Notes under the pieces: generated by a model
What the model was told of the DNA's origin: nothing
The model's database searches: none
The model's input: the letters and a program-made list of their open reading frames with translations, nothing else
Assembly (NCBI GenBank): GCA_963731735.1
Contig: CAVSWO010000001.1
Location: 64,761 to 128,760, forward strand
Direction of reading: 5' to 3'
DNA from: Candidatus Kerfeldbacteria bacterium
GTDB taxonomy: Bacteria > Patescibacteriota > Patescibacteriia > SBBC01 > CAIJZX01
Length of the DNA: 64,000 nucleotides
Shown: positions 21,007 through 62,796 of the stretch, piece by piece
Position numbering within the stretch: position 1 is the first letter of the stretch
How the letters are laid out: each line of letters opens with the position of its first letter
Made by a program: the position numbers and the translations under genes

Positions 21007-21944
21007 CCACGCGTTTAGTCCTGTTCGGTTCGGGTGAATTTGGGGTACCAAGCTTTCAAGCCCTGGCACAAGATCCACGTTTTACCGTCGTCAGCGTTGT
21101 TAGTCAGCCACCCAAGCCATCTGATCGCGGTCAGCAGCTGCGCCCCACACCGGTCCAGGTTTGGGCCGAGGCCGCTGAGTTACCGGTAATTACTCCCGGT
21201 TCAGTTCGCGATCCGGACGTTGGTAAACAACTCGCGGCCTTACAGGCAGATGCCTGGGTTGTCATCGCCTATGGGTTTATTCTCCCACCGGAACTCCTGG
21301 CTCTGCCGCCTCGCGGTATTCTCAACGTTCACGCCTCATTACTCCCAAAATATCGGGGGGCCAGCCCGATTGTGGCCGCCTTGGTCGCAGGTGATCAGCA
21401 AACCGGCGTAACTTTTATGCAAATTGACGCCGGCGTGGACACGGGTGGCAGCCTGCGAACCTACACCGAACTGATCAAACCGGATGACACCACGCCAGTA
21501 TTGGCCGAACGCTTAGCTCGACTGGCGGCCCAACATTTGCCAGATGATCTCCAAGCCTGGCTCAACCAAGAAATTACACCGGTGCCACAACCGTCAGATG
21601 GAGCCAGCCGCGCGCCAAAATTATCCCGCCCAGACGGTTATGCCACCTGGAATTCAGCCGTCGAATGGGAACGGAAAGTCCGAGCCTACACCCCGTGGCC
21701 ATCCGTTTGGACGACCTGGCGCGGGCAGCGATTAAAAATCCTGGCGGCTAAAGTCGTCAAGGGTCAACCAACAGAACCTCCAGGAACCGTGATCCCAGGA
21801 TCTAACCAATCGTGGATGATTGCCTGTCAAGACGGCTACCTTGAACCGATCCAAATTCAGTTGGCCGGCAAACGCCCGCAGGCGGCCGATTTGTTGGTCA
21901 AGAATTTTCCAGACCTGATCGGCACGCGTCTCGGAAACGACTAA
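21003..21944 (+). CDS. fmt: methionyl-tRNA formyltransferase
   Basis: NVHASLLPKYRGASPI formyltransferase motif. Start overlaps the def stop. Confidence 0.9.
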   Translation: MTTRLVLFGSGEFGVPSFQALAQDPRFTVVSVVSQPPKPSDRGQQLRPTPVQVWAEAAELPVITPGSVRDPDVGKQLAALQADAWVVIAYGFILPPELLALPPRGILNVHASLLPKYRGASPIVAALVAGDQQTGVTFMQIDAGVDTGGSLRTYTELIKPDDTTPVLAERLARLAAQHLPDDLQAWLNQEITPVPQPSDGASRAPKLSRPDGYATWNSAVEWERKVRAYTPWPSVWTTWRGQRLKILAAKVVKGQPTEPPGTVIPGSNQSWMIACQDGYLEPIQIQLAGKRPQAADLLVKNFPDLIGTRLGND

Positions 21945-23350
21945 CGGGATTTTTCGGTAACTACGAACCCCATGTAGCGTCCCAGCATCATGCGAGTTTG
22001 CGCGTCAATAGCCGGAATTGATCCGAAGATAATCATTGTTACCGGCAGGAAAGTCCACTGCACGATCATCATGATCCAGCGATACCAGGGCACATGTTTG
22101 GGACGCCGGGGTAGAATACTCATACTAATAACGGCTGAGGCAAACAAGCCTATCATGGCTAGCCCCATCAGCAACTGAATGGTAACTGGTCCGTTTTGAA
22201 CGAGTGGCGAACTGGGATGGGTTTGTCGGGCAACAAAAAACGGTAGCCACCCGAGGACCAAAATGAGCAGCGGTGCAATTGCCCAGGAATATATACCCTC
22301 CAGCTGAATCCAGGTGTATTTCAATTTGGTATGGACCGATAACGACCGATTGTGCAAGAAATTCCAAACGGTAAAGGGGAAATTTTCAACCCCGCCGTAT
22401 GCCCAACGTTGAATTTGGTAATACTGATTTCGCATACTGGTCCAGAATTTCGGTGCCTGGACGGTATCCATAGATATCGGAAGGTAGAGCGGAGTAACGG
22501 TATAGTGGCCGTCATAATGTAAAAAACATTGGACAAAAATTCTAGAATCTTCATTCACCACGTCCGTTTGCCAATATCCGACCTCAATCAAAGCTTGTAA
22601 GGGCATGCTATGGGAGGAAAACGTAAACATCCGGTCAGATCGTTGGGTTTCACTCAACAGCCAAAAAGTTGTGCTGCTCGCCACAATCCGCATTAAAAAC
22701 AAGGATTCCCAAACGTTGTTATGAAATAGCGGAATCGGTTGGAAGCTGGTCCGTTGTCGGTTCGGATGGGTTAGGAACGCATGGGTCAAATAGCTAAAGT
22801 ACTGGGGGTGAGCGATCGTATCGGCATCAAAGGTCGAAACCAGGACATGCTCATACGGAATTTGCCGTTGGTCGATCCACGTCCGCAGGCGTTGGGCAGC
22901 CCAGGTACAATTCGCTCCTTTAGCCGCGATTTCTCCCGGAATATTAGCCGGATGCTCGGTGACTAAAAATTCCAAAAAGACTGATTGAAACTCCTGTTGC
23001 ACCTGCATGGCAATCGGGCGGACACGTTCCGTTTCGCGTTCCTCAGTCGCGAGTACGATAATCATCCGATCTTTCGGGTAATCCACTGACTGCAACGAAC
23101 GCAGAGTCGCCCGTAAAACCTCAATCGGTTCTTTATAGGTCGGAATGATGATGGCGTGATAGACGCGGTTCCAATTCGGAAGTACTTGCAGCCGGGCCAA
23201 CCAATGAACGTGTCGTTCGCGTTGAAAGCGACGAAAACCAAGTAAAATATACCCCATCACATATAAGACGCGAATCAACCAATAGACATCGAAGAGTAAA
23301 ATAAACACAATTGCCCACAAGGGTGCGATCAAACGATACGGCAATTGCAA
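21941..23350 (-). CDS. processive family-2 glycosyltransferase (cellulose/chitin/hyaluronan-synthase-like membrane synthase)
   Basis: TFDADT (D,D,D) and QIQRWAYG (QxxRW) motifs, with multiple transmembrane helices at both ends. TTG start at 23350. A possibly longer N-terminus lies in another frame (see findings). Confidence 0.7.
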   Translation of the reverse strand: MQLPYRLIAPLWAIVFILLFDVYWLIRVLYVMGYILLGFRRFQRERHVHWLARLQVLPNWNRVYHAIIIPTYKEPIEVLRATLRSLQSVDYPKDRMIIVLATEERETERVRPIAMQVQQEFQSVFLEFLVTEHPANIPGEIAAKGANCTWAAQRLRTWIDQRQIPYEHVLVSTFDADTIAHPQYFSYLTHAFLTHPNRQRTSFQPIPLFHNNVWESLFLMRIVASSTTFWLLSETQRSDRMFTFSSHSMPLQALIEVGYWQTDVVNEDSRIFVQCFLHYDGHYTVTPLYLPISMDTVQAPKFWTSMRNQYYQIQRWAYGGVENFPFTVWNFLHNRSLSVHTKLKYTWIQLEGIYSWAIAPLLILVLGWLPFFVARQTHPSSPLVQNGPVTIQLLMGLAMIGLFASAVISMSILPRRPKHVPWYRWIMMIVQWTFLPVTMIIFGSIPAIDAQTRMMLGRYMGFVVTEKSR

Positions 23351-23492
23351 TGACCAACGATGACCAAACCAGGCCGCCAGGAATCATTTCCAACCAGCGG
23401 TACCGTTGTCGTTCAGTCCGATTCGTAATCAGGCGCTTAATCCATGGACGCATAGTGGGGGCTACCCTACCATTCAAGTTACCCGGAGTCAA

Positions 23493-24992
23493 TTAGCCTA
23501 GGCTGACTACTTGCGTACGCCGCAAAGCGGCTTTGGCCAGCGCCAATCGATCCTGGTTAAAACTGTACAACGTGTAAACTGGGTGTCCGCGTTCTACCCG
23601 TTCGCCGATTTTATGGTGTAGATAAATACCGCCCAGTTTATGCTCCGGAGCTCCCAGCGTTCGCGCCACTTCATCAATCGCCCGGTTATGAATGGCCTTG
23701 ATCCGCCCACTTTTTGCGGCCCGGACATCATAAGACACCGCCTGATGCATCAAGACTTCGGCATCGATAGCTGAATTTCCACCCTGGGCCCGAATAATCT
23801 GTCGCATCTTCTTGACCGCCGATCCGTCGGCTAAGGCCGTCCGGGCTTGTTCCAGGCCTAACCGGTAGGAAGTACGTCCGGTCAAAGCTAACAGCGTCGC
23901 GACAAGTTCAAGGGCTTTTTCTTCAAGGTCTAGCGGGCGGTTGGCTTTTTGTTGCAGGACCCGCATGACGTCACGCGCCTCGAGCGCCGGTCCAATTCCT
24001 TGGCCAACCGGTTGATTGGCCGGGTCCATCCGGACCGTAATTTTGATCTTGAAAGCTTTGGCCACCGCCTGAAATTTCTTTTCAAGCAGTTTGGCGGTTT
24101 TTACGTTCGGAATTTTTGTATCTGGCCCATACGGCATATCAATGACTAAGTACTTGATGCCCATGGCCACTTTTTTGGCCATAATACTGACAATCATCTT
24201 GTCGTAAGGTTCAAGCGAGAGTGGCTTCGAGACCCGGATAATGATATCGTCGGCCGGGGCAATACTTAGTCCCCCGCCCCATATCAAACACCCGTTCGTG
24301 TGGTTGACGATTGATCGGACTTTGTCGCCAGTAAACCCGACCGGCGCCAGAACCTCCATCGTATCCGATGTCCCCGAAGGTGAAGTGATTGCACGCGAAG
24401 AAGTTTTTGGAATGGTTAGGCCCAGGGCCGCGATCACCGGAATGGCCACCATGGTTGTTCGATTTCCGGCCAAACCCCCGACCGAGTGTTTATCGACAAC
24501 ATACGGGCTGGGCCACCGAAACATTTCTCCAGTTTGGGCCATGGCTTCCACCATCCAAACCAATTCATCAAGCGAATACGGTTTGACGTACCCGGAACTG
24601 ACAAAATAGGTCGTTTCGATGGTCCCGAGTCGGCGGCTGACGATATCTTGAATAATTGAATGCATTTCCTCCCGGGTAATTTTTCGTCCTTGGAGTTTTT
24701 TCTTAATGGCCGCCACCGAAACTGGCCGGGCGATGACTTCAATCGTAAGTAGGTCTCCGGCCGTGGGCTTTAAGACTTTCCAGACTTCATCGAACAGTCC
24801 AATTTCCCCGTGACGGATCGAATGGTGGGTGATATCGGCGACCACCACCATACTTTTCCGTTGATAGGTTATTTTTAATCGATCTCCGGGAGTAATCCCG
24901 AAACTGGCTGCGTCATGACCGCGTAAGACCACAATCCGTGAATCGTTGCCGGTATGAATATCGATTGGTTGGAGTTTCAGGGCAAAGGACAC
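23493..24992 (-). CDS. deoA: AMP phosphorylase (archaeal-type thymidine-phosphorylase-family enzyme with N-terminal extension)
   Basis: 499 aa. Close match along its length to Thermococcus AMPpase (KHSVGG, KTSSRAITS, IWGGGLSIAPADD, LVIDMPYG, NRAIDEVARTLGAPEHKLGGIYLH), with an N-terminal domain of about 85 aa that bacterial thymidine phosphorylases lack. Confidence 0.8.
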   Translation of the reverse strand: MSFALKLQPIDIHTGNDSRIVVLRGHDAASFGITPGDRLKITYQRKSMVVVADITHHSIRHGEIGLFDEVWKVLKPTAGDLLTIEVIARPVSVAAIKKKLQGRKITREEMHSIIQDIVSRRLGTIETTYFVSSGYVKPYSLDELVWMVEAMAQTGEMFRWPSPYVVDKHSVGGLAGNRTTMVAIPVIAALGLTIPKTSSRAITSPSGTSDTMEVLAPVGFTGDKVRSIVNHTNGCLIWGGGLSIAPADDIIIRVSKPLSLEPYDKMIVSIMAKKVAMGIKYLVIDMPYGPDTKIPNVKTAKLLEKKFQAVAKAFKIKITVRMDPANQPVGQGIGPALEARDVMRVLQQKANRPLDLEEKALELVATLLALTGRTSYRLGLEQARTALADGSAVKKMRQIIRAQGGNSAIDAEVLMHQAVSYDVRAAKSGRIKAIHNRAIDEVARTLGAPEHKLGGIYLHHKIGERVERGHPVYTLYSFNQDRLALAKAALRRTQVVSLG

Positions 24993-24996
24993 GAGT

Positions 24997-25983
24997 CTAG
25001 GGCTTCAAGGACGTGATAATTGAGCGATGGGTCGGACGCTGAGCGGTCAACAATCCGGCTTTGGCGCCAATGTGCTGAATGACCGATTGCGCGTTACTGG
25101 TTCCAAATTGAAGTCCGGCCGGAATATCTCCCGGATGACGAATATATGAACTGATAAACCCGCTGCCAAAGGCATCGCCGGCTCCGGTCGTATCAACGGT
25201 CCGGACTAACCGAGTCGTGCAGTGCCAGGCTTGGGTAGCCGTACCGGCGACCGACCCGTCTGACCCCAGGGTGATGAGGACTACCCCGCCGACAAATTGT
25301 CGCAGGCGGTCCAAGGCTTCCCGGTGCTGATATTGGTGAAGTCCGAACAACCCGGCGGCTTCTTCCTGATTCAAACTGACCATGGCCGCCTTTCGAAGCA
25401 ACGGTTTTAACCGGGTTAAACCGAGTGCCAATTCGGCCTGTCCGGGATTCCAGGCGATGTTCATTTTTGCCGCTTGGGCCCGTTTCCAGACATATTCGAG
25501 ATCTCGCCGACTGCCGCCAAGTGAAGTTATGTAGAGCCATTTTGCGCGAAAACGGTGCCAGGGTACTTTTGTCACGGCGATCGACTGCGAGGCACCGCGA
25601 AATACCAAAGCCGTTCGCTCACCCCGCGGCGTCAGCAGTAAGACCGAATACCCGGTTGGTTGTTTGAGGTCCCGCATGAGCAGGGCGGTATCGACCTTTT
25701 CCTGCCGTAATTCCCGCTCAATCAGTTTGGCTCGATCATCGTGATTTCCAACCTCGCCAATAAACGCCGTTCGGAATTTTTGTCGGGCAAAGGCCACGGC
25801 GGTGTTGGTGGCTCCTCCACCCGTGCTAAAAACCACTTCGTCAATTGCTATTTTTGATCCGAGCGCAAAACATTCTGCCTCGCCGGTTGAAAAACTTTGG
25901 TCCGGGATAACTCGCAGCGCTCGGCTCTTGAGAAAAACGTCTCGGGTGGCCGATCCGACGGTGACGACATCGTAGTGTTTCAT
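24997..25983 (-). CDS. PfkB-family carbohydrate/nucleoside kinase (ribokinase-like)
   Basis: GGGATNTAVAFA and TTGAGDAFGSGF PfkB signatures. Confidence 0.8.
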   Translation of the reverse strand: MKHYDVVTVGSATRDVFLKSRALRVIPDQSFSTGEAECFALGSKIAIDEVVFSTGGGATNTAVAFARQKFRTAFIGEVGNHDDRAKLIERELRQEKVDTALLMRDLKQPTGYSVLLLTPRGERTALVFRGASQSIAVTKVPWHRFRAKWLYITSLGGSRRDLEYVWKRAQAAKMNIAWNPGQAELALGLTRLKPLLRKAAMVSLNQEEAAGLFGLHQYQHREALDRLRQFVGGVVLITLGSDGSVAGTATQAWHCTTRLVRTVDTTGAGDAFGSGFISSYIRHPGDIPAGLQFGTSNAQSVIQHIGAKAGLLTAQRPTHRSIITSLKP

Positions 25984-26825
25984 GCTTTCCTCCGGCTCCC
26001 AAATAGTATCATTTTCTTTTCCACCTCACGTTGCATCGCCTCGCGTCCAGCTGCCAAATAGACTCGCGGATCATAGAGTGATGCCTGTGAGCGCAAGGTC
26101 TTTCGAACCGCCGACGTGAAGGTCTCCTGTGAATCCGTATCAATATTTATTTTACAAATACCGAGTCGAATCGCTCGTTTAATCGCAGCCGGCGGTGTAC
26201 TGGAAGCTCCATGCAGCACTAACGGAACATGCACGACTTTCCGGATTTGTTGCAGGCGCGGAAAATGTAAATGTTCATGGGGCTGCGGTGGACCGTGGGC
26301 ATTGCCAATCGCGACCGCAAACGCCACCACGCCAGTGCGGCCAACAAAGTCGGCGGCTTGAGTCGGATCGGTCATCGCTAAACTCGGATCGCGGTTAATT
26401 TCGAACTGGTATTTCACCTGCCCCAATTCACCCTCCACGCCGATTTTTCGGCGTTTTCCGAAAGCCACCACCCGCTTGGTTTGGGCAATATTTTTCGCAT
26501 ACGGCAGTCGACTGCCATCAAACATAATGCCGGTATACCCAGCCGCCAGGCAGGCCTGGGCTTCCTTAACGGAATGTCCATGATCGAGATTCAAAACGAC
26601 CGGAACCGGGGTAACGGACGCCAGTACTCGCACAATGGCCGCCAGGGCCTGACGATTACCGTACGCAATCGCTCGTTCCGACGTATTGATGATGACCGGT
26701 GAACGTTGGGCTCGGGCGGCTTGGAGCACCGCCTGAATCTGTTCAAGGTTGGCGACGTTAAAAGCGCCAACCGCGTACCGTCCACGTTGCGCTTTTTGTA
26801 ACACCGTCTGTAAGGTCGCAAGCAT
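25980..26825 (-). CDS. fba: class II fructose/tagatose-bisphosphate aldolase
   Basis: LNLDHGHS, IMFDGS, IGNAHG and LVLHGASS motifs. Confidence 0.85.
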   Translation of the reverse strand: MLATLQTVLQKAQRGRYAVGAFNVANLEQIQAVLQAARAQRSPVIINTSERAIAYGNRQALAAIVRVLASVTPVPVVLNLDHGHSVKEAQACLAAGYTGIMFDGSRLPYAKNIAQTKRVVAFGKRRKIGVEGELGQVKYQFEINRDPSLAMTDPTQAADFVGRTGVVAFAVAIGNAHGPPQPHEHLHFPRLQQIRKVVHVPLVLHGASSTPPAAIKRAIRLGICKINIDTDSQETFTSAVRKTLRSQASLYDPRVYLAAGREAMQREVEKKMILFGSRRKA

Positions 26826-26842
26826 GCCTGTAGTTTAGCATA

Positions 26843-27490
26843 TTACCGGACTTTCGACACCGCATTCTGCAGTTGTCGTAAGGCCTGCGCCGGATCCCGG
26901 GATCGTAATAAAAATGAGCCGACCACCAAGCGTGAAGCCCCGGCCGCAACGAGGCGCGGAGCGGTTTGTGGCGTCACCCCACCATCGGCCGTAATCGTGC
27001 ATCGCGGGTACCGGACGTGGAGTTGTCGAACTCGTTCAACCGTACCCGGCCAAAATCTTCCTCCATAGGCTCCCGGTCGAACGCCCATGACCGTACACTC
27101 CGAAACGCGTGAAAGCCAGGGTGTCAATTTGCCGATCGGCGTGTCCGGATTGATCGCCAAGCTAACAGGAATTTTTCGCGATCGAAAAAGTGCGAGCAGG
27201 ACCGGCAGTTTCGGCTGTAATTCGACCGGAATAATTATGCGTTGTTTGGCGCCTGGCAGCAACAATGGTAGCCAATTTTCCGGCTGGACAACCATGCAAT
27301 GCCATTCTGTCCGCGTCGGTAATTTTTTCGAACGTAAAAACGTTTGTGACACCGAACGTGTCTTCACAAACCGTCCGTCCATTACATCAATATGGAGTTC
27401 CCGACTAAGTTCAAGCGCCAGGGCCAGCCGCCGGTCAAACTGCTGAGCGGTACCCGCCAGGACAGCCGGAATAATTTTAACGCGCATGTT
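26843..27490 (-). CDS. rpe: ribulose-phosphate 3-epimerase
   Basis: HIDVMDGRFV hallmark motif. Start taken at MRVKIIPAVLAG; the ORF track extends it upstream into rpiB. Confidence 0.85.
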   Translation of the reverse strand, partial: NMRVKIIPAVLAGTAQQFDRRLALALELSRELHIDVMDGRFVKTRSVSQTFLRSKKLPTRTEWHCMVVQPENWLPLLLPGAKQRIIIPVELQPKLPVLLALFRSRKIPVSLAINPDTPIGKLTPWLSRVSECTVMGVRPGAYGGRFWPGTVERVRQLHVRYPRCTITADGGVTPQTAPRLVAAGASRLVVGSFLLRSRDPAQALRQLQNAVSKVR

Positions 27491-27941
27491 CGATCCGAGC
27501 GATTTCATGTAATCGACGGGTGTGCCGCCGTTGCTGAGAATAATCCGTGCGCAGCCAGGTTTGCACAATTTGTTTGGCCTTTGGCAGGGTCAAATGATCA
27601 GCCGCGAGCGATAAGACATTCGTGTCTTCATCACGCCGGGATGCACGAGCAACCGCCCTCGACCAGCCTTGCACCGCTCGAATGCCTAAAAATTTGTTAG
27701 CCACCAAAGCCATGCCGACACCGGACCGGCACGACAAAATGGCCCGACTGTCGGGTTGTCGCTGCACCAGGCGAACGGCGCGAGCGGCCCAAATTGGATA
27801 ATCATCCGTTTGGTTTGGCCGGGCTGGCTCAAGCGACCGGACCTCCCAGCCCTGAGCCGACAGCCAGGCAGCTAACGAACGACTGAGTTTCCAGCCGCCA
27901 TGATCGGAAGCGAGGATTAATACCGGCTTAGTTTTTGCCAT
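27477..27941 (-). CDS. rpiB: ribose-5-phosphate isomerase B
   Basis: ILASDHGG and CRSGVGMALVANK (RpiB/LacAB). Start at MAKTKPVLIL. Confidence 0.85.
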   Translation of the reverse strand: MAKTKPVLILASDHGGWKLSRSLAAWLSAQGWEVRSLEPARPNQTDDYPIWAARAVRLVQRQPDSRAILSCRSGVGMALVANKFLGIRAVQGWSRAVARASRRDEDTNVLSLAADHLTLPKAKQIVQTWLRTDYSQQRRHTRRLHEIARIEHAR

Positions 27942-27945
27942 GGAT

Positions 27946-28128
27946 TTAGGAGTTGGTTTGGGTGGTGAACGAACGATCGGTTTCGACGCCTGCGTTAATC
28001 GGCGCGGAGGTATTGGTGTTGCTGATGGCGCTGTTGCTTGGCGTTGTTCGCGAGCTCGACCACCACCAAACACCGCCAGCCAGGATACCCAGGACGATGA
28101 TAACCACGATAATTGTGTTTGTTTTCAT
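27946..28128 (-). CDS. small hypothetical membrane/secreted protein, 60 aa, Ser/Thr/Asn-rich
   Basis: Hydrophobic N-terminus (MKTNTIIVVIIVLGILAGGVWWW). Its stop abuts the rpiB start. No clear Shine-Dalgarno sequence. Confidence 0.3.
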   Translation of the reverse strand: MKTNTIIVVIIVLGILAGGVWWWSSSRTTPSNSAISNTNTSAPINAGVETDRSFTTQTNS

Positions 28129-28137
28129 ACGCGACGT

Positions 28138-28449
28138 TTAATTACTTTGATAGAGTGAAAGCATGTGTTTAGCCTTAGCCGAAATTTTTGTCGGATTCCA
28201 AGGCGGATCAAAGGTGACGGTGATCTGAACATCCGCCACACCCGGTATTTTTTTGACCGCTTCGGTCAATTGATCATGAAAATACGGGACCAACGGGCAG
28301 CCGGGTGTCGTCAGAGTCATGGTGATACCCACTCGCTCCCCCGTCATTTTGACATCGTAGATCAATCCCAGACTCACGACGTCAATACCGAGTTCGGGAT
28401 CGTTGACGGTTGAAAGAGCCTCAAAAACTTTTTCTCGGCTAGGCGCCAT
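28138..28449 (-). CDS. DUF59/MIP18-family Fe-S cluster assembly protein (SufT-like)
   Basis: LGIDVVSLGLIYDV…TTPGCP motif; 103 aa. Confidence 0.75.
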   Translation of the reverse strand: MAPSREKVFEALSTVNDPELGIDVVSLGLIYDVKMTGERVGITMTLTTPGCPLVPYFHDQLTEAVKKIPGVADVQITVTFDPPWNPTKISAKAKHMLSLYQSN

Positions 28450-29377
28450 GTTTCGCCGCCTGCTCGCTCAGATATTTTTCAGCTTCAAGCGCAGCCATAC
28501 ATCCCCAGCCAGCGGCCGTAACCGCTTGACGATAGCGCCAATCAGCCACGTCACCACCGATGAATATTCCCGGGATTGATGAGAAAACTTGATTGGTGAC
28601 TTGTAAATATCCCGGCCCAACGAGTTCAAGTTGATCGGCAAAAATTTTTGTATTCGGTTGATGCCCAATGGCTAGGAAAACGCCCTGAACCGCTAACTCC
28701 TGTTCCTGCCCGGTCGAAACATTTTTTAGTTTGATACCCGAGACTGTTTGTTCGCCCAAAACATCGACGACTTCCGTTTGGTAGAGAAATGAAATTTTCG
28801 GATCGGCTTCGGCTCGATGGACCATGGCTTTACTGGCCCGGAGTTTATCTGATCGGACCAGGACGGTAACTTTGGTGGCAAACTTAGTCAAGTACGTAGC
28901 CTCTTCCATGGCCGAATCTCCGCCACCAATGACCACCACCGCTTTATTGCGGAAGAAGAACCCATCACACGTAGCACAGGCCGACACACCTTTGCCTCGC
29001 AGACGCCGTTCATTTGGCAACCCGAGCCATTTGGCCGAAGCGCCGGTTGCAATAATCACGCTCTCGGCTTGATATGCATCGTCACCGGCCCATACGTGAT
29101 ACGGACTGGATGAAAAATCAACTCGGGTGGCCGCCGCTTGGACGATGGTGGTACCAAAGTGTTCCGCCTGTTGTTGGAATGCCTGCATCAATTCCGGGCC
29201 CAGGATACCCTTCGGAAAGCCGGGATAATTTTCGACCTCAGTGGTATTCATCAGCTGTCCGCCGGGTTCAGGACCGGCTAGAAGGATAGGTTTGAGATCG
29301 GCCCGAGCGGCATAAATTGCGGCCGTATACCCGGCTGGACCGGATCCGAGAATTAAGACTTTGGTGTGGGTAGCCAT
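28439..29377 (-). CDS. trxB: thioredoxin-disulfide reductase
   Basis: GSGPAGYTAAIYAAR FAD motif and CATCDG redox-active disulfide. Confidence 0.9.
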   Translation of the reverse strand: MATHTKVLILGSGPAGYTAAIYAARADLKPILLAGPEPGGQLMNTTEVENYPGFPKGILGPELMQAFQQQAEHFGTTIVQAAATRVDFSSSPYHVWAGDDAYQAESVIIATGASAKWLGLPNERRLRGKGVSACATCDGFFFRNKAVVVIGGGDSAMEEATYLTKFATKVTVLVRSDKLRASKAMVHRAEADPKISFLYQTEVVDVLGEQTVSGIKLKNVSTGQEQELAVQGVFLAIGHQPNTKIFADQLELVGPGYLQVTNQVFSSIPGIFIGGDVADWRYRQAVTAAGWGCMAALEAEKYLSEQAAKHGA

Positions 29378-29924: not shown

Positions 29925-31334
29925 TTATGGTAGGCGCAGTGTTTGGCCAATCGTTGGTTCAATAATCGACCACTGCGGATGGCGCTGCCGAAGCAGCGTG
30001 GCCAGGGCTGCCGCTCGATCCGGTTCGGAATGGGTGAGGGCAACCAAGTGTAGCCCCGGGATTTTTTCGGCATAGGCCATCAATTCATTCGCATCGGCAT
30101 GCGCGCTTAAATCATTGAGAATGTCGAGTTTGGCCCGGACCGGATAGCGACGGCCATATATGCGTATATGCTTTGCTCCTTGGACCATATGCCGACCCAT
30201 GGTATGAATGGCTTGGTACCCGGTAAACATTACCGTAGTGGTCGGATCGGAAACAAAATTCTTCAGATGGTGCAAGACCCGTCCGCCGGACAACATGCCG
30301 GACGCGCTAATCACCATCCACGGTCCCGGCCGTTTGAGTATCGCCTTTGATTCATCCACGCTTTGAGTAAATTCAAGGTTTGTAAAATCCAAGGGATTTT
30401 CATTTGGTCGTGAAAAATCCTGACGTGATTCTTTGTCGTAATCATTTTGATGTTTGGCGAAGACTTTAGTGATTCGGCTGGCTAACGGACTATCGATGAT
30501 AATTGGGATCCGCGGAATTTTTCCTTCGTCCGTCATCCGGTGCAAAATATAGATTAATTGCTGGGTGCGACCCATCGAAAAGGCCGGTACAATCACGCGG
30601 CCATGCAATTTGACGGCCCGCTGAATGGACGCAATCAAGGCGCCTTCAACCTCATGTTCCGGATGGTGAAGCCGGGTTCCGTACGTCGCCTCCATCAGCA
30701 AGATATCCGCCGCCTCTTGAATTGGCTGCGGATCACGCAATAACGGCCTCCCAGGACGCCCTAAATCGCCCGTATACGCGAGTTGACGGGCTTGTCCGTG
30801 TTCTTGACCGCGAATGACGGTCACGGCTGATCCGAGGATATGACCGGCATCGTAAAGCTTTGCCTCCACGCCTTCGGCCACGGTCGTCCAGGCATGATGA
30901 TCGGTATTGTAAGGCAAATGGACGAAATGCTGCATGACCGCCGGAATGTCATCCTGGGTATACAATGGCTCACCCGCATCCGGATCCTGAATGCCGTGTT
31001 TGCGTAAATACATGGCATCCTGTTCTTGGATATGCGCCGCATCGAGTAAAATCAATTCGGCTAAATCCCGGGTTGCGCCGGTGGCAAATATTTTTCCGCG
31101 GAATCCTTGTTTGACTAAGACTGGTAAAAGCCCAACGTGGTCGAAATGGGCGTGCGAAATAATGACGGCATCGATTTCAGCCGCCGCAAAACCCAACTGC
31201 TTATTCCGCTCTCGCGCCTCCTCGCGGTGACCTTGGTATGCCCCGCAATCCAATAATATCTTTTTACCGGCGATTTCTACGAGATGTTTCGAACCGGTAA
31301 CTTCACCGGCAGCTCCAAAAAAAGTGACATTCAT
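29925..31334 (-). CDS. beta-CASP family MBL-fold ribonuclease (RNase J/CPSF73-like)
   Basis: IISHAHFDHVG MBL motif, with beta-CASP and RNA-specificity C-terminal regions. Confidence 0.75.
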   Translation of the reverse strand: MNVTFFGAAGEVTGSKHLVEIAGKKILLDCGAYQGHREEARERNKQLGFAAAEIDAVIISHAHFDHVGLLPVLVKQGFRGKIFATGATRDLAELILLDAAHIQEQDAMYLRKHGIQDPDAGEPLYTQDDIPAVMQHFVHLPYNTDHHAWTTVAEGVEAKLYDAGHILGSAVTVIRGQEHGQARQLAYTGDLGRPGRPLLRDPQPIQEAADILLMEATYGTRLHHPEHEVEGALIASIQRAVKLHGRVIVPAFSMGRTQQLIYILHRMTDEGKIPRIPIIIDSPLASRITKVFAKHQNDYDKESRQDFSRPNENPLDFTNLEFTQSVDESKAILKRPGPWMVISASGMLSGGRVLHHLKNFVSDPTTTVMFTGYQAIHTMGRHMVQGAKHIRIYGRRYPVRAKLDILNDLSAHADANELMAYAEKIPGLHLVALTHSEPDRAAALATLLRQRHPQWSIIEPTIGQTLRLP

Positions 31335-35133: not shown

Positions 35134-36756
35134 TTACGGTGCCCAGCGATGATTGGCAAATGCCCAGTTCGTAATTGCGGCCGCATCGTTGAAGCGCTCA
35201 GTTTCGCTGGCCGAAGCCAGCAAAGCCGTCACCACCTGGGTACCCTGACTTTTACTGGCCGAACGCGTCACAAAAGTATACTTGGCTTCATCGATATAGC
35301 CGGTTTTCCCACCCGTGATGATCAGCGAATTATCGACTTTTCCGCTCCCCAGGAGCTTATCGGTCGTCACGAATCGGTGAGTTTGTCCGGAGTTCTTGGT
35401 TGTGAACGTGTAGTCACGGCGGACGGTCACGAATCGAATCGGTTCATATTCATGCAGGATTTGCGCCGTCATGCGGGCCAGTTCCTCAGCCGTTGAAACA
35501 TTACCGCTGTTTAATCCACTCACCCCGACGAAGTGGGTCCGGCCAAGTCCCCACGCTTGCGCCTTGGCATTCATTTTCGCCACAAATTCATCGCGACTCA
35601 TGCCCGTAGCCCGAGCCAAGGCATCGGCTGCATTGTTGGCTGATCCGACCAGCATCGCGTAAAACAAATCCCGCTCTTCCAGGGTGTCGCCTGGCGCGAC
35701 ACGGAGATAGTCATACCGTCCGCCGTAACCGGCTGTATCTTCCGCCCCATAGGTAAAGATCCGATGTAAATCAGGCTGGGTATCGAGATAGACGGCAGCG
35801 GTCATTAACTTCGTCAGACTGGCAATCGGTACGACGTCGTCTTTGCGATACCAGGCCAGGAGTTGATTGGTCGTTTGATCGTAGACCGCGAATGGCCGGG
35901 GGCGAATGGATGGGAATGGAATGCCATTATTGCCGACTAAATGCACGGCCGGTAAGGTTTCAACTTTACCCAGCGAAAAAGCGGCGGTGGCGGTACCGAG
36001 CACCTGGGCGGAAACTGGCGAAACATTGACGCGCGTTAATCCGGCATTACTCGCGCCGAGTTGACTATACGCGGCCCACGACAAATCGATTACCCGTCCA
36101 GCCGGCTGGCCCCAGGTTGAAACGATTTTGACTTCAACGGTTTTCCCGGTTTCAAGACTGCGCACCCGAACCAAGCTGCCAACTGGAAAGTCATTGGAAG
36201 TGCCATGCAGCGTGGGATATCGCGATGAGCAAAAATTCTTACAGTACCACGAGGCTACCCCCTCTTCTTGGTTGCGATCTTCCAAAATTGCATACAACCC
36301 GCGTTGGATACCGGAAGGCGCTTGACCGAGCGTATGATCGGCGTTCAACCGGGTCGGCAGCGGATTCCAGATTTTGGCGTCCAGATCATAAACCCAAACT
36401 TGGCGGATCCAAGTACTATCGCCAAATGGTAAACCTACGGCCACCGATAACGGCTGGGCTGGGTTAATATGGGTATTACCGTCAATCGACAGTCGATAAA
36501 CTTGCCCGAGGATTTTTCGATTGGGCGGGAGGGCCGGCAGATCACCTTCGTGAACCGTCCAGGTAACTTGCCCAGGGGCAACGATGCCATTCGGAAAAAT
36601 TCCCGCATTGGCACCCGCAACCGTGAAGGTCTTCCCCCATCGGACGTACGTGGCGGAGTAATCAAAGGCCGGCGTTTCGGTGGCACTGGCTGGGCGCAAA
36701 AGCCAAAAACCACTTGCCACGACGATAGCCAGCAGGTACACTACGATTCGTTTCAT
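35134..36756 (-). CDS. D-alanyl-D-alanine carboxypeptidase (S11, PBP5/6-like) with an N-terminal RlpA-like double-psi beta-barrel domain
   Basis: Signal peptide from MKRIVVYLLAIVVASG. RlpA-like GVASWY…SLVRVRSLETGKTVEVKIV. SLTK (SxxK), SGN and KTGY motifs. The ORF-track start at 36996 runs across tRNA-Gly and is rejected. Confidence 0.7.
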   Translation of the reverse strand: MKRIVVYLLAIVVASGFWLLRPASATETPAFDYSATYVRWGKTFTVAGANAGIFPNGIVAPGQVTWTVHEGDLPALPPNRKILGQVYRLSIDGNTHINPAQPLSVAVGLPFGDSTWIRQVWVYDLDAKIWNPLPTRLNADHTLGQAPSGIQRGLYAILEDRNQEEGVASWYCKNFCSSRYPTLHGTSNDFPVGSLVRVRSLETGKTVEVKIVSTWGQPAGRVIDLSWAAYSQLGASNAGLTRVNVSPVSAQVLGTATAAFSLGKVETLPAVHLVGNNGIPFPSIRPRPFAVYDQTTNQLLAWYRKDDVVPIASLTKLMTAAVYLDTQPDLHRIFTYGAEDTAGYGGRYDYLRVAPGDTLEERDLFYAMLVGSANNAADALARATGMSRDEFVAKMNAKAQAWGLGRTHFVGVSGLNSGNVSTAEELARMTAQILHEYEPIRFVTVRRDYTFTTKNSGQTHRFVTTDKLLGSGKVDNSLIITGGKTGYIDEAKYTFVTRSASKSQGTQVVTALLASASETERFNDAAAITNWAFANHRWAP

Positions 36757-36758
36757 GT

Positions 36759-36832
36759 GCGGGTATGGTTTAGTGGTAAAACACGACCTTCCCAAGGTTG
36801 AGTCGGGGGTTCGATTCCCCCTACCCGCTCCA
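36759..36832 (+). tRNA. tRNA-Gly (anticodon CCC)
   Basis: Manual cloverleaf: acceptor GCGGGTA/TACCCGC, anticodon loop TTCCCAA, T-arm GGGGG-TTCGATT-CCCCC, encoded CCA. Confidence 0.85.
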
Positions 36833-36908
36833 AGGAGCCTGCGATCGATTCGTTTGCATCCGATTTTTGGGTAAACGAAAAACTTGGCATGCTGTCCACA
36901 GCAGTCTA

Positions 36909-37733
36909 TCAAACCCTGGGCGAGTCGGCAAGAACGGTTGCAAGAAAGTCTTGAATTTTGGCTAAAATATCGGCTCGCGCGGCGGGTTCCAGCCAAGGGC
37001 GATGGTGGGTGGTTGGCAAAGCGATTTGTCGCTTGATGGGGCTAGCCAGATGATGGGCAATCGTATCGGCGCTGTTGGTCACCACGTACTGATCTTGCGC
37101 CGTCTGCATAATCAACGCCGGAGTATGAATTTGACCGAGCACCGGTTTAACGTACTGATCAAATATTGTATAGGTTTCAAAAATACTGGCAATCGGCCAA
37201 ACCGCTAAAGAACCGGATTTCTCCATCCGCGCATAGTCATCAGCCGTCAAACCGGATTTTTTGTAATAGGGCGTAAACAATTTGAGTAAACGGAGTAAAA
37301 TCCGCTGAAAGGGCCCACCGCGTTGGTATTTGAGCGGGGTATTCAGGGTTATAACTGCGGTTACTCGATCGGGGTGGCGGGCCGTATAATCGAGGGCCAA
37401 AGCGCCGCCAAACGAAACGCCAAACAGCACTACTCGCTGACATTGGCTGCCAACAAAATCCGCGGCCGCTTCGATCGAAGCTTGCCATTGTTGATGGGTT
37501 GTCTGGCGGAGTTGATCCGGACCTTGTCCATGACCGGCCACGCGGGTGCCAAAAACTGCGTATCCTTGGTCTTGGAGATCTTCAGCCAGGGTGCGTAAAT
37601 CACCGATACTCCCCCCAAAGCCATGAATCAGTATGATGCCAGTCGGTCCGCCGGGGAGCCAAAAGGGTTGCGCGCCAGGGTGTACCTGCGTTGACGAGCC
37701 CGGTAATTTTGGGGTATGGTGTTCGTTGCTCAT
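36909..37733 (-). CDS. alpha/beta hydrolase (esterase/lipase-like)
   Basis: HGFGG oxyanion motif and GVSFGG nucleophile elbow. Confidence 0.7.
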   Translation of the reverse strand: MSNEHHTPKLPGSSTQVHPGAQPFWLPGGPTGIILIHGFGGSIGDLRTLAEDLQDQGYAVFGTRVAGHGQGPDQLRQTTHQQWQASIEAAADFVGSQCQRVVLFGVSFGGALALDYTARHPDRVTAVITLNTPLKYQRGGPFQRILLRLLKLFTPYYKKSGLTADDYARMEKSGSLAVWPIASIFETYTIFDQYVKPVLGQIHTPALIMQTAQDQYVVTNSADTIAHHLASPIKRQIALPTTHHRPWLEPAARADILAKIQDFLATVLADSPRV

Positions 37734-38807
37734 CTAGGAGAGGGGCGGCTGGCCGGTGTAGCTCAGTGGTAGAGCAATGCTTTCGTAAAGCAGAGGTCGT
37801 CGGTTCAATCCCGACCACCGGCTCCATGCCAATCGATTGGTTGAATATCGGTCGGACAATTGCACGTTGGCCTGGCGATTGTTCCAGTCTAATCCGCGGA
37901 GCCAGACGCGCACGCCGGCTGATTTAAGATAGGCATCAATGTAATCGTCAACTGACGGGGCGGCAATAAAAATTTGTCGGACATGGACTTGCCGCTGCCC
38001 ATCTTGTTCGCGTTCTTCCACGACTTTAATAATGTGGAATCCGAACTTGGTATGGATCAAATCACTGGTTTCGCCGACATTCAGGTTAAAAGCCGCATTT
38101 TCAATTTCTTCAGCCAACGTCCCGCGAGTAATGAAACCCAAATCTCCGCCTTGGGCCGCGTAGGCGTCTTCACTGTACGTTTTCGCCAAATCTTCAAAAG
38201 ACTGATCTCCGGCTTGGAGCAGCTTGAGGACTTGTTCGGCTTGTTTTTTAACATCCGCATTCAACTGGTCATTAAACGACAGATATTCGCGCAATTTCTC
38301 ACGAGCAACTGCCACGCGAATAATATTGGCCTTAAACTGCTCGGGGCTCCAATCGTAGAGTTCTTGTATCGTTTGTTCGGTAGCCTTTCGATCACCCCCT
38401 TGGACCAACTGAGCGGTAAAAGCTTGATCGACGTCAGCCTGGGAGAGTTGAATTTTTTGTCGGTTCAGCAGGGCCAAGGTGGCGGTATCCCGAATCACTT
38501 TGTCCATTGCTTGCTGGCGAATATCGGAGGCTGAAACGGCCGGAAAAACCGTTGGGTTGTTAGCGTGCAACTGGGCCGAATAGTGTCCTAAGCCCTGGCG
38601 AATTTCGATCCAATTTGCTAACCAGATCGGATGCCAGCCAATACTGGCGGCCGGCAACGGTACAACCGTCGCAATTTTCTGTACCCAGGGTTGTTCTTGA
38701 CCGGCTCCGTACACTGTCACCGCTAGGGCGCCAATTGCCAGCAGCGCCAAACCCACCAAGCCGAGTAGGCTGCCGAATATCCAACGATGTGACCAATGCA
38801 TACTCAT
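37734..38807 (-). CDS. parvulin-type peptidyl-prolyl isomerase (PrsA/SurA-like), membrane-anchored
   Basis: N-terminal transmembrane helix. FEDLAKTYSED…GGDLGFITRG…FGFHIIKV parvulin motifs. The last roughly 30 codons run antisense through tRNA-Thr, so the true C-terminus is uncertain. Confidence 0.7.
   Translation of the reverse strand: MSMHWSHRWIFGSLLGLVGLALLAIGALAVTVYGAGQEQPWVQKIATVVPLPAASIGWHPIWLANWIEIRQGLGHYSAQLHANNPTVFPAVSASDIRQQAMDKVIRDTATLALLNRQKIQLSQADVDQAFTAQLVQGGDRKATEQTIQELYDWSPEQFKANIIRVAVAREKLREYLSFNDQLNADVKKQAEQVLKLLQAGDQSFEDLAKTYSEDAYAAQGGDLGFITRGTLAEEIENAAFNLNVGETSDLIHTKFGFHIIKVVEEREQDGQRQVHVRQIFIAAPSVDDYIDAYLKSAGVRVWLRGLDWNNRQANVQLSDRYSTNRLAWSRWSGLNRRPLLYESIALPLSYTGQPPLS
37752..37826 (+). 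tRNA. tRNA-Thr (anticodon CGU)
   Basis: Manual cloverleaf: acceptor GCCGGTG/CACCGGC, D-arm GCTC-AGTGGTA-GAGC, anticodon loop TTCGTAA, T-arm GTCGG-TTCAATC-CCGAC, encoded CCA. Confidence 0.85.
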
Positions 38808-53659: not shown

Positions 53660-54305
53660 GCCCGGCTTCAGACCACCGATAAGCCGAATTCTGTCAACCT
53701 CCGCCGGAGGCTACGGTTGACAAGTTCCCTTTCCGGGGATGCTTGCCGGCCGAAGTCTCCGACGCAGGCCGGATGATCATCTCTCTTGGACGGACATTGC
53801 TGCCCGCCTCATGCGATCTACCCGCCCCGCACACCGAGCTGGTGTGGGAGCCTATGCGATCTTGCACCGGAGAGGGTTTACCCGTCCCGATAGTCACCTA
53901 TCGGGACCGTGGGCTCTTACTTTACCCGCCGAAGCGAGGTATCCCTCACGATGGAGGGCCCACGATTTCACCCTTACTTGAGTCTTGCCCTTGGGTTGGC
54001 ATCTCAGCTGTGACTGCCGGTCAGAGACCCGCAGACTGGCCAGTGTGATGCTCCAAGGTGAAGTGCCTGAATAATTCAGACGAAGCAATTCCCGAGCGGT
54101 ATGTTTCTGTTGCACTAATCCCTAGGCTTGGCCCCCACGCCAATACACACGCGCCGGTGTGCATTGGTGTGGGGGTTACTCCCGGTTGCCGTTAGCAACT
54201 CTCCTTGACCCTGCATGTCTGCAGGAGGTGTTCGGACTTTCCTCCCACCGAAACGCACTTGCGTGCACACCGGCGGGCGATCATCTGGTGGTCTGAAAAG
54301 GGCTG
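53660..54305 (-). ncRNA. rnpB: RNase P RNA, bacterial type A, with large insertions (about 645 nt)
   Basis: Minus-strand matches to universally conserved M1 RNA blocks: GGAAAGUCCGAACACC (P4 5'), GUGCAACAGAAACAUACCGC, CAAGUAAGGGUGAAA, GUAAAGUAAGAGCCCACGG, GGGUAAACCCUCUCCGGUGCAAG, ACAGAAUUCGGCUUAUCGGUGGUCUG (P4 3'/P1). P1 pairs CAGACCACC with GGUGGUCUG. Ends are approximate. Confidence 0.75.
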
Positions 54306-59825: not shown

Positions 59826-59858
59826 ATCGACCGGACACCCGTCCGGTCGTTTTTTTAT
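59826..59858 (+). terminator. intrinsic terminator (GACCGGAC-accc-GTCCGGTC followed by GTTTTTTTAT)
   Basis: Perfect 8-bp stem followed by a T7 run. Sits between convergent genes, so it may be bidirectional. Confidence 0.6.
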
Positions 59859-61102: not shown

Positions 61103-61139
61103 AGGTTTACTTTTACGTTGTTGGCAGCATGTAATGGAA

Positions 61140-62330: not shown

Positions 62331-62339
62331 TTGGGCAAC

Positions 62340-62760: not shown

Positions 62761-62796
62761 TGGGTCTCTCCTCTCGCTCGTGCGGGGCGGATTCTA

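Follow-up and report, generated by a model that had tools for sequence, protein, structure and literature searches.

Within a subclade of Candidatus Kerfeldbacteria, the e2b2-(HAD)-RuBisCO block found upstream of the AMP phosphorylase (AMPpase) gene in sister CPR operons is replaced by genes encoding RpiB, ribulose-phosphate 3-epimerase (RPE), a class II aldolase (FBA) and a PfkB kinase. This pentose-phosphate neighbourhood is a conserved, clade-specific substitute for the usual e2b2-RuBisCO neighbours. In the window (the whole 64-kb stretch of DNA analysed), the rpiB, rpe, class II fba, pfkB and AMPpase genes occupy positions 23493-28073 of the minus strand, all in the same direction and closely packed. 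The original prediction of a tightly packed, co-directional group with these four neighbours is borne out by the ORF coordinates, which give gaps or overlaps of 4-17 nt between cluster genes, and by Pfam and NCBIfam, which confirmed all five gene families.

The RpiB/LacAB-family sugar-phosphate isomerase (27477..27941, 154 aa) matches PF02502 (114.6 bits) and exceeds the cut-off of TIGR00689 (118.4 versus 88.3). The RPE family protein (26843..27487, 214 aa; PF00834, 101 bits) scores below the cut-offs of the NCBIfam rpe models (113 versus 165 and 95 versus 212.6), and is therefore a divergent family member. It is followed by the class II ketose/fructose-bisphosphate aldolase (25980..26825, 281 aa; PF01116, 308 bits; TIGR00167 cbbA, 267.9 with a cut-off of 215.6), the PfkB/ribokinase-family kinase (24997..25983, 328 aa; PF00294, 128.5 bits) and, as the final gene, the archaeal-type AMP/NMP phosphorylase (DeoA-like; 23493..24992, 499 aa), which starts with GTG. 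The longest ORFs of RPE and RpiB extend to 27568 and 28073, respectively, and probably start too far 5', because the PF00834 and PF02502 matches begin only at residues 32 and 53 of these ORFs, the RPE orthologue in a related locus (L003) is 215 aa long, and RpiB orthologues measure 146-155 aa; ATG 27487 and ATG 27941 are the probable starts. Further downstream, the AMPpase GTG lies 4 nt from the PfkB stop codon, the PfkB ATG is overlapped by 4 nt by the FBA stop, and the FBA ATG lies 17 nt from the RPE stop. A sequence scan of the cluster found no consensus terminator between its genes, and promoter-like sites are rarer in it than in shuffled sequence. The cluster, with AMPpase as its 3' gene, is translationally coupled, and the close coupling of AMPpase with pfkB and fba suggests co-expression.

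AMP (NMP) phosphorylases convert a nucleoside monophosphate and Pi into the free base and ribose-1,5-bisphosphate (R15P). The 499-aa protein exceeds the NCBIfam cut-offs of NF003338 (539.9 versus 434 bits) and TIGR02645 (517 versus 434.6), and contains the superfamily domains PF02885, PF00591 and PF07831. Its best PDB sequence match is the Thermococcus kodakarensis AMPpase 4GA5 (phmmer E 2.4e-100, residues 6-496), and an AF2 model (pLDDT 90.4) likewise finds 4GA5_A as its top Foldseek match (TM 0.84, 498 columns, 37% identity), with the N-terminal domain covered. Pyrimidine-nucleoside phosphorylase (PyNP) and thymidine phosphorylase (TP) structures align to this model over only ~430 columns. 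On these data, the gene is intact and orthologous to the AMP (NMP) phosphorylase of archaea and CPR bacteria. The score on the AMP_phos equivalog TIGR03327 (509.7 bits) falls 25 bits below the cut-off of 535, which is a lineage effect: homologs from CPR RuBisCO operons score 518-555 and the window's own group 509-533. Like T. kodakarensis TK0352 (4GA4/4GA5/4GA6; EC 2.4.2.57), the protein combines an N-terminal ~85-aa domain with a helical bundle, an alpha/beta domain and a PYNP_C domain, and it essentially keeps the columns invariant between the archaeal enzyme and CPR homologs; it differs in its bacterial (CPR) host, in the sub-threshold TIGR03327 score that several RuBisCO-linked CPR homologs share, and in that neither R15P isomerase nor RuBisCO was found linked to it.

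An ordinary thymidine or pyrimidine-nucleoside phosphorylase, releasing (deoxy)ribose-1-phosphate for the pentose-phosphate genes, is a highly improbable reading of this gene. Several orthologues do carry the NCBI name 'thymidine phosphorylase', and the TIGR03327 score is below the equivalog cut-off. However, these names derive from NF003338, a subfamily model with a generic title, and homologs in RuBisCO operons are likewise sub-threshold on TIGR03327. Bacterial TP/PyNP models reach just 120-197 bits (cut-offs 269-571), and both the N-terminal domain and the nearest solved structure are those of AMPpase. DeoA and Pdp share the catalytic fold and superfamily, but the window protein is only 21-26% identical to them and has the additional N-terminal domain. 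The predicted archaeal type with its N-terminal extension, as opposed to bacterial DeoA, thus stands: model scores set the protein apart from bacterial TP/PyNP, and the N-terminal fold is present in both sequence alignment and model.

[quoted passage not shown] Nine Kerfeldbacteria loci group with the window (Group A, monophyletic in 200/200 NJ bootstraps), and 23 more distant CPR loci form Group B. The order RpiB-RPE-FBA-PfkB-AMPpase-GT2 is present in all nine Group A loci, and its recurrence in nine independent relatives argues against a chance juxtaposition. However, collinearity within Group A extends over the full ~20-kb region, and conserved adjacency by itself is therefore no proof of functional coupling. 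In Group B, e2b2 lies directly upstream of AMPpase in 20 of the 23 loci, 16 of which also have RuBisCO. One locus, L023, shares the right flank of Group A (GT2, Fmt, Def), whereas its left side carries e2b2-RuBisCO, which puts the synteny break precisely on the 5' side of AMPpase. The window's enzyme belongs to the same orthologous AMPpase family as those of the CPR e2b2-RuBisCO-deoA 'AMP pathway' operons (48-54% identity; Wrighton et al. 2016, PMC5113843; Jaffe et al. 2019, PMC6389311) and occurs in the same superphylum; its locus and all nine of Group A differ in the upstream RpiB-RPE-FBA-PfkB genes and in that e2b2/RuBisCO was not found nearby. At the protein level, 74 of the 85 columns invariant in Group B and T. 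kodakarensis are unchanged throughout Group A, and only three fixed differences (positions 25, 27 and 443) separate the two groups.

The predicted lack of e2b2 (R15P isomerase) and RuBisCO in the window was confirmed by tblastn, in which three CPR sequences served as queries for each of the two, and by a motif scan, and neither occurs within ±10 kb of any of the nine Group A loci. Contig fingerprints were also compared for the best 120 homologs each of one Kerfeldbacteria-type RuBisCO and one e2b2, a test that covers same-contig genes and would miss unlinked or divergent (e.g. III-like) copies. These lists gave eight RuBisCO and five e2b2 matches to Group B AMPpase contigs, and none among 64 Group A AMPpase contigs, including the 857-kb contig JACPSJ010000001 and contigs of 609 and 507 kb. 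The one published Kerfeldbacteria RuBisCO, MBI5465798.1 (PMC13454268), lies 63 accession numbers before a Group B AMPpase (L030) and 995 before a Group A one (L005). This indirect contig evidence leans towards absence of e2b2 and RuBisCO elsewhere in Group A genomes as well.

Upstream of RpiB lies a 60-aa ORF (27946..28128, minus strand) with one hydrophobic helix, as read from the sequence; relatives carry at this position an ORF of 146-212 aa of no known family, such as a 208-aa ORF without a Pfam match in L003. Next come genes for a SufT-like Fe-S assembly protein (28138-28449, minus strand; PF01883, 87 bits) and a thioredoxin-reductase-like flavoprotein (28439-29377, minus strand; TrxB label from reading the translation); these co-directional genes form a flank that the subclade conserves, and no role in the pathway is apparent for them. 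A beta-CASP metallo-beta-lactamase ribonuclease (29925..31334, minus strand; PF10996, PF00753, PF07521) is encoded a few kb upstream of the cluster, and five RuBisCO-type loci have it as the gene next to e2b2 on the upstream side; speculatively, it may supply NMPs. Downstream, a membrane GT2 glycosyltransferase gene (21941..23453, minus strand; PF13641) appears frameshifted near 23335-23400: in tblastn with its L001 orthologue it is split between frame -3, which holds the N-terminus, and frame -1, and an in-frame TGA is present. Group A conserves this GT2 flank, and AMPpase and GT2 are likewise paired in L017 and L023.

The PfkB protein keeps the catalytic motifs GG, NxxE and TGAGDAF but fits no characterised specificity in NCBIfam or PDB profile searches, which bears out the original caution over its substrate. 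It reaches no equivalog (ribokinase 112 versus 299.65, haloarchaeal ATP-R1P kinase 89 versus 330, fructokinase 88 versus 450), and its best PDB profile matches are ribokinase and YdjH (~135 bits). Pairing of this kinase with FBA is favoured by their 4-nt gene overlap, by the rarity of phosphofructokinase in CPR (PMC7304191) and by locus L034, where a 43%-identical PfkB again adjoins class II FBA and AMPpase is absent; other more remote members of the subfamily, also without AMPpase, lie in unrelated contexts.

Our preferred reading, held tentatively and with less than even confidence, is that AMPpase-released ribose would enter central carbon metabolism via the co-transcribed non-oxidative pentose-phosphate and upper-glycolytic enzymes, with no linked RuBisCO. 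AMPpase would still phosphorolyse nucleoside monophosphates, and R15P would be converted to ribose-5-phosphate (R5P), a conversion for which the cluster has no gene and for which we know of no well-established enzyme. R5P would then pass through RpiB and RPE and an unlinked transketolase; neither transketolase nor transaldolase was found in the window by a crude motif scan and Pfam searches of ~40 of its ~62 ORFs. PfkB and the overlapping aldolase would act as a ketose-phosphate kinase/aldolase pair, turning F6P, possibly S7P, into a bisphosphate and then triose phosphates. This route is most conjectural at two points, the step that consumes R15P and the substrate of PfkB. A partial parallel is the haloarchaeal non-carboxylating pentose bisphosphate pathway (Sato et al. 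2022, PMC9700705), in which nucleoside ribose also passes via R15P without RuBisCO; its kinase, ATP-R1P kinase, is of the ribokinase family, and its aldolase yields DHAP. That pathway, however, has no NMP phosphorylase and depends on R15P isomerase, on a HAD-family RuBP phosphatase and on a Ru1P aldolase of the FucA type, whereas the cluster here encodes an NMP phosphorylase but no e2b2, its aldolase is of the FBA class II type (PF01116), and its PfkB is no orthologue of the haloarchaeal kinase.

A canonical NMP shunt (NMP to R15P to RuBP to two 3-PGA, as in Thermococcus and other CPR) is a serious alternative, although on balance we doubt it. Here, e2b2 and a form III-type RuBisCO would lie elsewhere in the genome, and the rpiB-rpe-fba-pfkB adjacency would be a by-product of rearrangement, a loose 'central carbon' grouping. 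The AMPpase catalytic core is indistinguishable from that of RuBisCO-linked homologs, inheritance of deoA and e2b2 in CPR is reported to be largely vertical, and the region-wide collinearity means that adjacency need not be functional. Among haloarchaea, moreover, only species that have RuBisCO carry homologs of NMP phosphorylase (PMC9700705), which argues that AMPpase normally needs RuBisCO and counts against our preferred routing; the evidence for absence, drawn from the best 120 homologs, is also indirect. Against the shunt stand the lack of e2b2/RuBisCO in the 64 kb and within ±10 kb in nine relatives, the three long Group A contigs without a match among the homologs listed where the same lists recover Group B co-occurrences, and the tight coupling of AMPpase to pfkB and fba. 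A RuBisCO-independent R15P node seems unlikely: PfkB and a reversible AMPpase would interconvert nucleosides or pentose phosphates and NMPs, taking R1P to R15P and, with free bases, to NMP and Pi, a PRPP-independent salvage fed by the upstream pentose-phosphate genes. Its attractions are the position of pfkB immediately upstream, 4 nt from the AMPpase start, the absence of de novo nucleotide synthesis in CPR bacteria (PMC5113843), and the ribokinase-family membership of both known R1P kinases. Sugar kinases without an assignment may include further, unrecognised R1P kinases, as PMC9700705 notes, and the haloarchaeal ATP-R1P kinase is the second-best NCBIfam match of PfkB. However, PfkB lies far below both R1P-kinase cut-offs (89 versus 330 and 55.6 versus 500), its remoter relatives occur without AMPpase, no nucleoside phosphorylase or phosphopentomutase was found in the window, and the reverse reaction is not known from any CPR enzyme.

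AMPpase in CPR bacteria, including Kerfeldbacteria, has already been described and annotated, and the enzyme type itself is not new. The added point, of modest novelty, is that the gene resides in an operon with sugar-phosphate enzymes and not beside RuBisCO as in its relatives. Under the preferred RuBisCO-independent routing, the PfkB/FBA pair would provide these bacteria with a phosphofructokinase function, which is usually missing from CPR genomes.

The window encodes, at 23493-24992 on the minus strand, a 499-aa thymidine-phosphorylase-family protein with a GTG start (hereafter AMPpase), in which the helical bundle, alpha/beta domain and PYNP_C domain (PF02885, PF00591 and PF07831) each exceed the gathering threshold. 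The protein passes the NCBIfam cut-offs of the archaeal-type models NF003338 (539.9 against 434) and TIGR02645 (517 against 434.6), but reaches none of the models for bacterial thymidine/pyrimidine-nucleoside phosphorylases (TP/PyNP), including TIGR02643 (120 against 570.7), TIGR02644 (197.4 against 409), NF004490 (188 against 269) and NF004747 (136.8 against 559). Its score with the 'AMP phosphorylase' equivalog TIGR03327 is 509.7, 25 bits short of the cut-off of 535, and scores across the clade of the window range from 509 to 533. A changed function was rejected as the reading of this value, because the RuBisCO-operon AMPpases of other CPR bacteria range from 518 to 555 and likewise fall short in three of six cases (at 518-524); judged by these homologs, the shortfall appears to be a lineage effect.

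Bacterial DeoA/Pdp proteins comprise about 435 aa and lack the N-terminal domain, whereas the window protein carries this additional domain of about 85 residues. The closest solved structure is the AMP phosphorylase of Thermococcus kodakarensis (Tk; 4GA5/4GA6, E 2.4e-100), which aligns over residues 6-496 and thus covers the N-terminal domain, while TP/PyNP chains match only from about residue 93. An AlphaFold2 model built from 36 homologs (mean pLDDT 90.4) predicts a beta-rich domain at residues 1-86 (pLDDT 68-87), and Foldseek ranks 4GA5_A first (498 columns, TM 0.84/0.85), followed by the N-terminal deletion mutant 4GA4 and then by TP/PyNP structures (about 430 columns). The HMM scores and the full-length sequence and structure matches to 4GA5 therefore contradict both a grouping with bacterial TP/PyNP and an absence of the N-terminal domain, and bear out the original prediction of an archaeal-type enzyme with an N-terminal extension rather than a bacterial DeoA.

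The window protein was further aligned with 32 relatives and the Tk enzyme, the relatives falling into Group A, the Kerfeldbacteria subclade of the window, and Group B, a set of more distant CPR loci. Among the 85 columns invariant in Group B, the RuBisCO-linked group, and in the Tk enzyme, 74 are retained in all Group A sequences. The window protein departs from three of the 85, at V186, A369 and R377, and the two groups have different fixed residues at just three positions (25, 27 and 443). Nothing in the conservation pattern suggests altered catalysis. Collectively, sequence comparison and the predicted structure identify the protein as an intact orthologue of the archaeal/CPR AMP/NMP phosphorylase. 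Its nearest homologs (60-72% identity) belong to uncultured Patescibacteria, the named ones to 'Candidatus Kerfeldbacteria', and are labeled either 'AMP phosphorylase' or 'thymidine phosphorylase'. CPR bacteria are well known to carry genes for AMPpase (deoA), for the ribose-1,5-bisphosphate (R15P) isomerase (e2b2) and for RuBisCO of forms II/III, III-like and III-c, and in some of their operons RuBisCO lies between deoA and e2b2 (PMC5113843; PMC6389311). Finding an archaeal-type AMPpase in this genome is accordingly nothing new in itself, and the protein is a further representative of a family already described in this lineage. What is new is a modest observation, namely a conserved pentose-phosphate neighbourhood where relatives carry RuBisCO and e2b2.

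The AMPpase gene is the last of five genes at 23493-28073, all on the minus strand. It is preceded by genes for a PfkB kinase (24997-25983, 328 aa; PF00294, 128 bits), a class II aldolase (FBA; 25980-26825, 281 aa), an RPE-family protein (PF00834, 101 bits; longest ORF 26843-27568) and an RpiB/LacAB-family isomerase (PF02502, 115 bits; TIGR00689, 118 against 88; longest ORF 27477-28073). The aldolase contains a full-length PF01116 domain (308 bits, model positions 2-276 of 277) and passes the subfamily cut-off (TIGR00167, 267.9 against 215.6). For the RPE and RpiB genes, domain boundaries and orthologue lengths favour starts at ATG 27487 and ATG 27941, and the longest-ORF starts are probably spurious. 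The AMPpase GTG begins 4 nt past the PfkB stop codon (TAG), the PfkB ATG and the FBA stop codon overlap by 4 nt, and 17 nt separate the RPE stop codon from the FBA ATG. A consensus scan detected no terminators between the cluster genes, and promoter-like sites within the cluster were rarer than in shuffled sequence. This operon-like spacing, the lack of internal terminators and the scarcity of promoter-like sites confirm the predicted co-directional, tightly packed cluster, whose five genes are tightly coupled.

Two further ORFs flank the cluster. Between SufT and RpiB lies a 60-aa ORF with a single hydrophobic helix (28128-27946, minus strand); relatives have, in the same place, an ORF of 146-212 aa that belongs to no known family, and the window ORF may be a truncated remnant of it. 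On the 3' side of the AMPpase gene, a GT2 glycosyltransferase gene (21941-23453, minus strand) is apparently frameshifted, with about 48 N-terminal codons (from ATG 23453) in frame -3, the remainder in frame -1, and an in-frame TGA at 23386-23384; the break might reflect an error in the assembly, a pseudogene or recoding.

Elsewhere in the window, there is a sharp rise in GC content, from about 0.55 to 0.66-0.78, at approximately 61000-64000, where the ORFs yield no Pfam hits and resemble frame-broken high-GC genes; this end may stem from a chimeric join in the assembly or from foreign DNA. The 599-aa ORF at 59855-61654 seemingly combines a secreted protein of about 430 aa with a spurious high-GC N-terminal extension. 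A bacterial class A RNase P RNA (53664-54296, minus strand, 175.8 bits) spans 633 nt against a model of 367 positions, implying large insertions. In addition, tRNA-Gly(CCC) (36759-36832, plus strand) and tRNA-Thr(CGT) (37752-37826, plus strand) overlap the ends of the longest minus-strand ORFs at 35134-36996 and 37734-38807, respectively, indicating that both genes are really shorter than these ORFs.

A scan of species-representative genomes with the AMPpase returned 33 loci, which fall into the two groups. Group A consists of the window and loci L001-L007, L011 and L029, with AMPpases 62-67% identical to that of the window, and is monophyletic in 200 of 200 neighbour-joining bootstraps. All its members share the gene order beta-CASP RNase ... 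TrxB-SufT-x-RpiB-RPE-FBA-PfkB-AMPpase-GT2 / Fmt-Def-PriA. Group B comprises the other 23 loci (at most 54% identity), among them the low-GC Kerfeldbacteria L008 and L009, Komeilibacteria, Falkowbacteria and Paceibacter. In 20 of these 23 loci, e2b2 lies directly or closely upstream of the AMPpase gene, and 16 of the 20 carry RuBisCO between the two, sometimes with a HAD hydrolase (Pfam-confirmed). The Group B locus L023 combines the right flank of Group A (GT2, Fmt, Def) with an e2b2-RuBisCO left flank, which places the synteny break exactly at the 5' end of the AMPpase gene. The swap of the e2b2-RuBisCO neighbours is specific to the Group A clade, and these gene orders are most simply read as the replacement, in that clade, of an ancestral e2b2-RuBisCO block. 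However, the whole region of about 20 kb is collinear in Group A, so that retained adjacency alone is no evidence of selection for adjacency.

Several neighbouring genes recur among the relatives. The HAD-family hydrolase lies between e2b2 and RuBisCO in Paceibacter-type operons (L012, 8082-8699; also L014, L015 and L016) and is reminiscent of the RuBP phosphatase, also a HAD protein, in the non-carboxylating pathway of haloarchaea. A beta-CASP/RMMBL ribonuclease is encoded in the window a few kb upstream of the cluster (29925-31334, minus strand), and in five RuBisCO-type loci (L013, L019, L021, L022 and L027) its gene immediately precedes e2b2; the enzyme may have a conserved role in providing AMPpase with 5'-NMPs. 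One Group B subclade has a gene for a 138-aa EamA half-transporter directly after the AMPpase gene (L010, 11605-12021; L025; L026; L030, 4396-4812); L010, L025 and L030 lack an adjacent RuBisCO, and L026 carries a divergent one.

Searches with tblastn detected neither e2b2 (PF01008, three CPR queries) nor the RuBisCO large subunit (PF00016/PF02788) in the 64-kb window, in agreement with the original prediction, or in the Group A loci (±10 kb). For the genomes beyond these loci, contig-length fingerprints were compared between the AMPpase homologs and the best 120 homologs each of one RuBisCO type and one e2b2 (both from L008), a proxy that sees only genes on the same contig. Eight fingerprints among the best 120 RuBisCO homologs match Group B AMPpase contigs (3121, 5065, 7573, 7784, 8047, 147964, 335345 and 1182071), as do five among the best 120 e2b2 homologs (5065, 7784, 93603, 335345 and 860445). 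None of the 64 Group A AMPpase contigs (including those of 857,372, 609,483 and 507,752 bp) was matched among the best 120 of either list. The proxy, whose power is low, thus recovers co-occurrence in Group B and nothing for Group A, and the evidence leans weakly towards an absence of e2b2 and RuBisCO from Group A genomes. A published 'Kerfeldbacteria III-like' RuBisCO, MBI5465798.1 (PMC13454268), was considered as a Group A enzyme and rejected on accession order: it precedes the Group B AMPpase of L030 (MBI5465861.1) by 63 accession numbers and the Group A AMPpase of L005 (MBI5466793.1) by 995, and, assuming sequential numbering, its source is most likely the L030 MAG of Group B. Supplements of CPR papers contain no per-genome table of deoA, e2b2 and RuBisCO.

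The PfkB protein harbors the catalytic motifs of the ribokinase superfamily (GG, NxxE and TGAGDAF), but reaches neither the ribokinase equivalog TIGR02152 (112.4 against 299.65) nor that of fructokinase (88 against 450). Its sugar-binding motif reads GGGATN, replacing the Lys of the ribose-binding ribokinase motif GGKGAN (K43 in E. coli RbsK). By both the missed cut-off and the altered motif, the protein is not assigned to RbsK. Single-sequence and profile searches of the PDB return ribokinase, YdjH, adenosine-kinase-like and fructokinase structures at similar scores, and together with the NCBIfam searches do not discriminate among these specificities. Relatives in JGI metagenomes are distant (29-43% identity), and occur in varied contexts without AMPpase; in L034, the relative adjoins a class II FBA, and others adjoin NurA or NAD-kinase genes. 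The L034 metagenomic contig (GC 0.57) encodes, at 14-2206, a fragment of a PfkB, then a class II FBA, a complete-cluster-type PfkB and a 2-hydroxyacid dehydrogenase, and no AMPpase, indicating that FBA and PfkB were paired before AMPpase became linked to them. Phosphofructokinase is rare in CPR bacteria (PMC7304191). Given this rarity, the 4-nt overlap with FBA and the adjacency in L034, a ketose-phosphate kinase working with FBA is the favoured prediction for PfkB, and a ribose-1-phosphate (R1P) kinase acting beside AMPpase is possible.

In the explanation that we tentatively prefer, with somewhat less than even confidence, ribose released by AMPpase enters central metabolism through the products of the cluster. 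AMPpase would convert NMP and phosphate to the free base and R15P, a further step would yield R5P, and the ribose would then be handled by RpiB and RPE, by a transketolase encoded outside the cluster and by the PfkB/FBA pair. RpiB itself is unlikely to stand in for e2b2, since R15P is blocked at C1, a point of biochemical reasoning only. It is also a real, if not a probable, possibility that Group A employs the canonical shunt with e2b2 and RuBisCO encoded unlinked elsewhere, against which stand the negative searches of the window and Group A loci and the lack of any Group A contig in the best-120 lists.

A RuBisCO-free R15P node, with PfkB as an R1P kinase and AMPpase possibly running in reverse, appears unlikely. 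According to the literature, sugar kinases without an assigned function may include R1P kinases yet to be identified, and NMP phosphorylase can also take part in converting nucleosides to NMPs via R15P (PMC9700705), but PfkB scores far below the equivalogs of the haloarchaeal ATP-dependent (NF053626, 89 against 330) and Thermococcales ADP-dependent (NF041134, 55.6 against 500) R1P kinases. Very improbable is a plain nucleoside phosphorylase, a reading in line with the 'thymidine phosphorylase' names of some nearest homologs and opposed by the N-terminal domain and by TP/PyNP scores of 120-197 bits against cut-offs of 269-571. Entry of AMPpase-derived ribose through the clustered enzymes remains our tentatively preferred explanation. 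The original prediction holds in both observation and interpretation as regards the enzyme type, the cluster and the window content.

To our knowledge, the only role so far ascribed to AMP/NMP phosphorylase is that of opening the R15P isomerase-RuBisCO route. Among haloarchaea, NMP phosphorylase is restricted to species with RuBisCO (PMC9700705). It is conceivable, although doubtful, that Group A has lost e2b2 and RuBisCO, kept a conserved NMP phosphorylase and rewired it into a RuBisCO-independent R15P node. If the partners are encoded elsewhere, this would be a routine gene of the CPR AMP pathway in a rearranged neighbourhood, and the case is of interest only if whole genomes of the subclade truly lack e2b2 and RuBisCO. 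In a rewired node of this kind, nucleotide ribose would exchange directly with the pentose-phosphate pool through the putatively co-transcribed PfkB and RpiB/RPE/FBA, an exchange that could either channel NMPs into glycolysis or assemble them from free bases and pentose phosphates, bypassing PRPP. Such a route would add a third variant, a bacterial one, to pentose-bisphosphate metabolism and would need a new R15P-converting activity. Group A thus offers a natural test case for whether R15P can enter central metabolism by a way other than RuBisCO, which bears on how CPR symbionts, dependent on scavenged nucleotides and mostly lacking phosphofructokinase, may harvest ribose.
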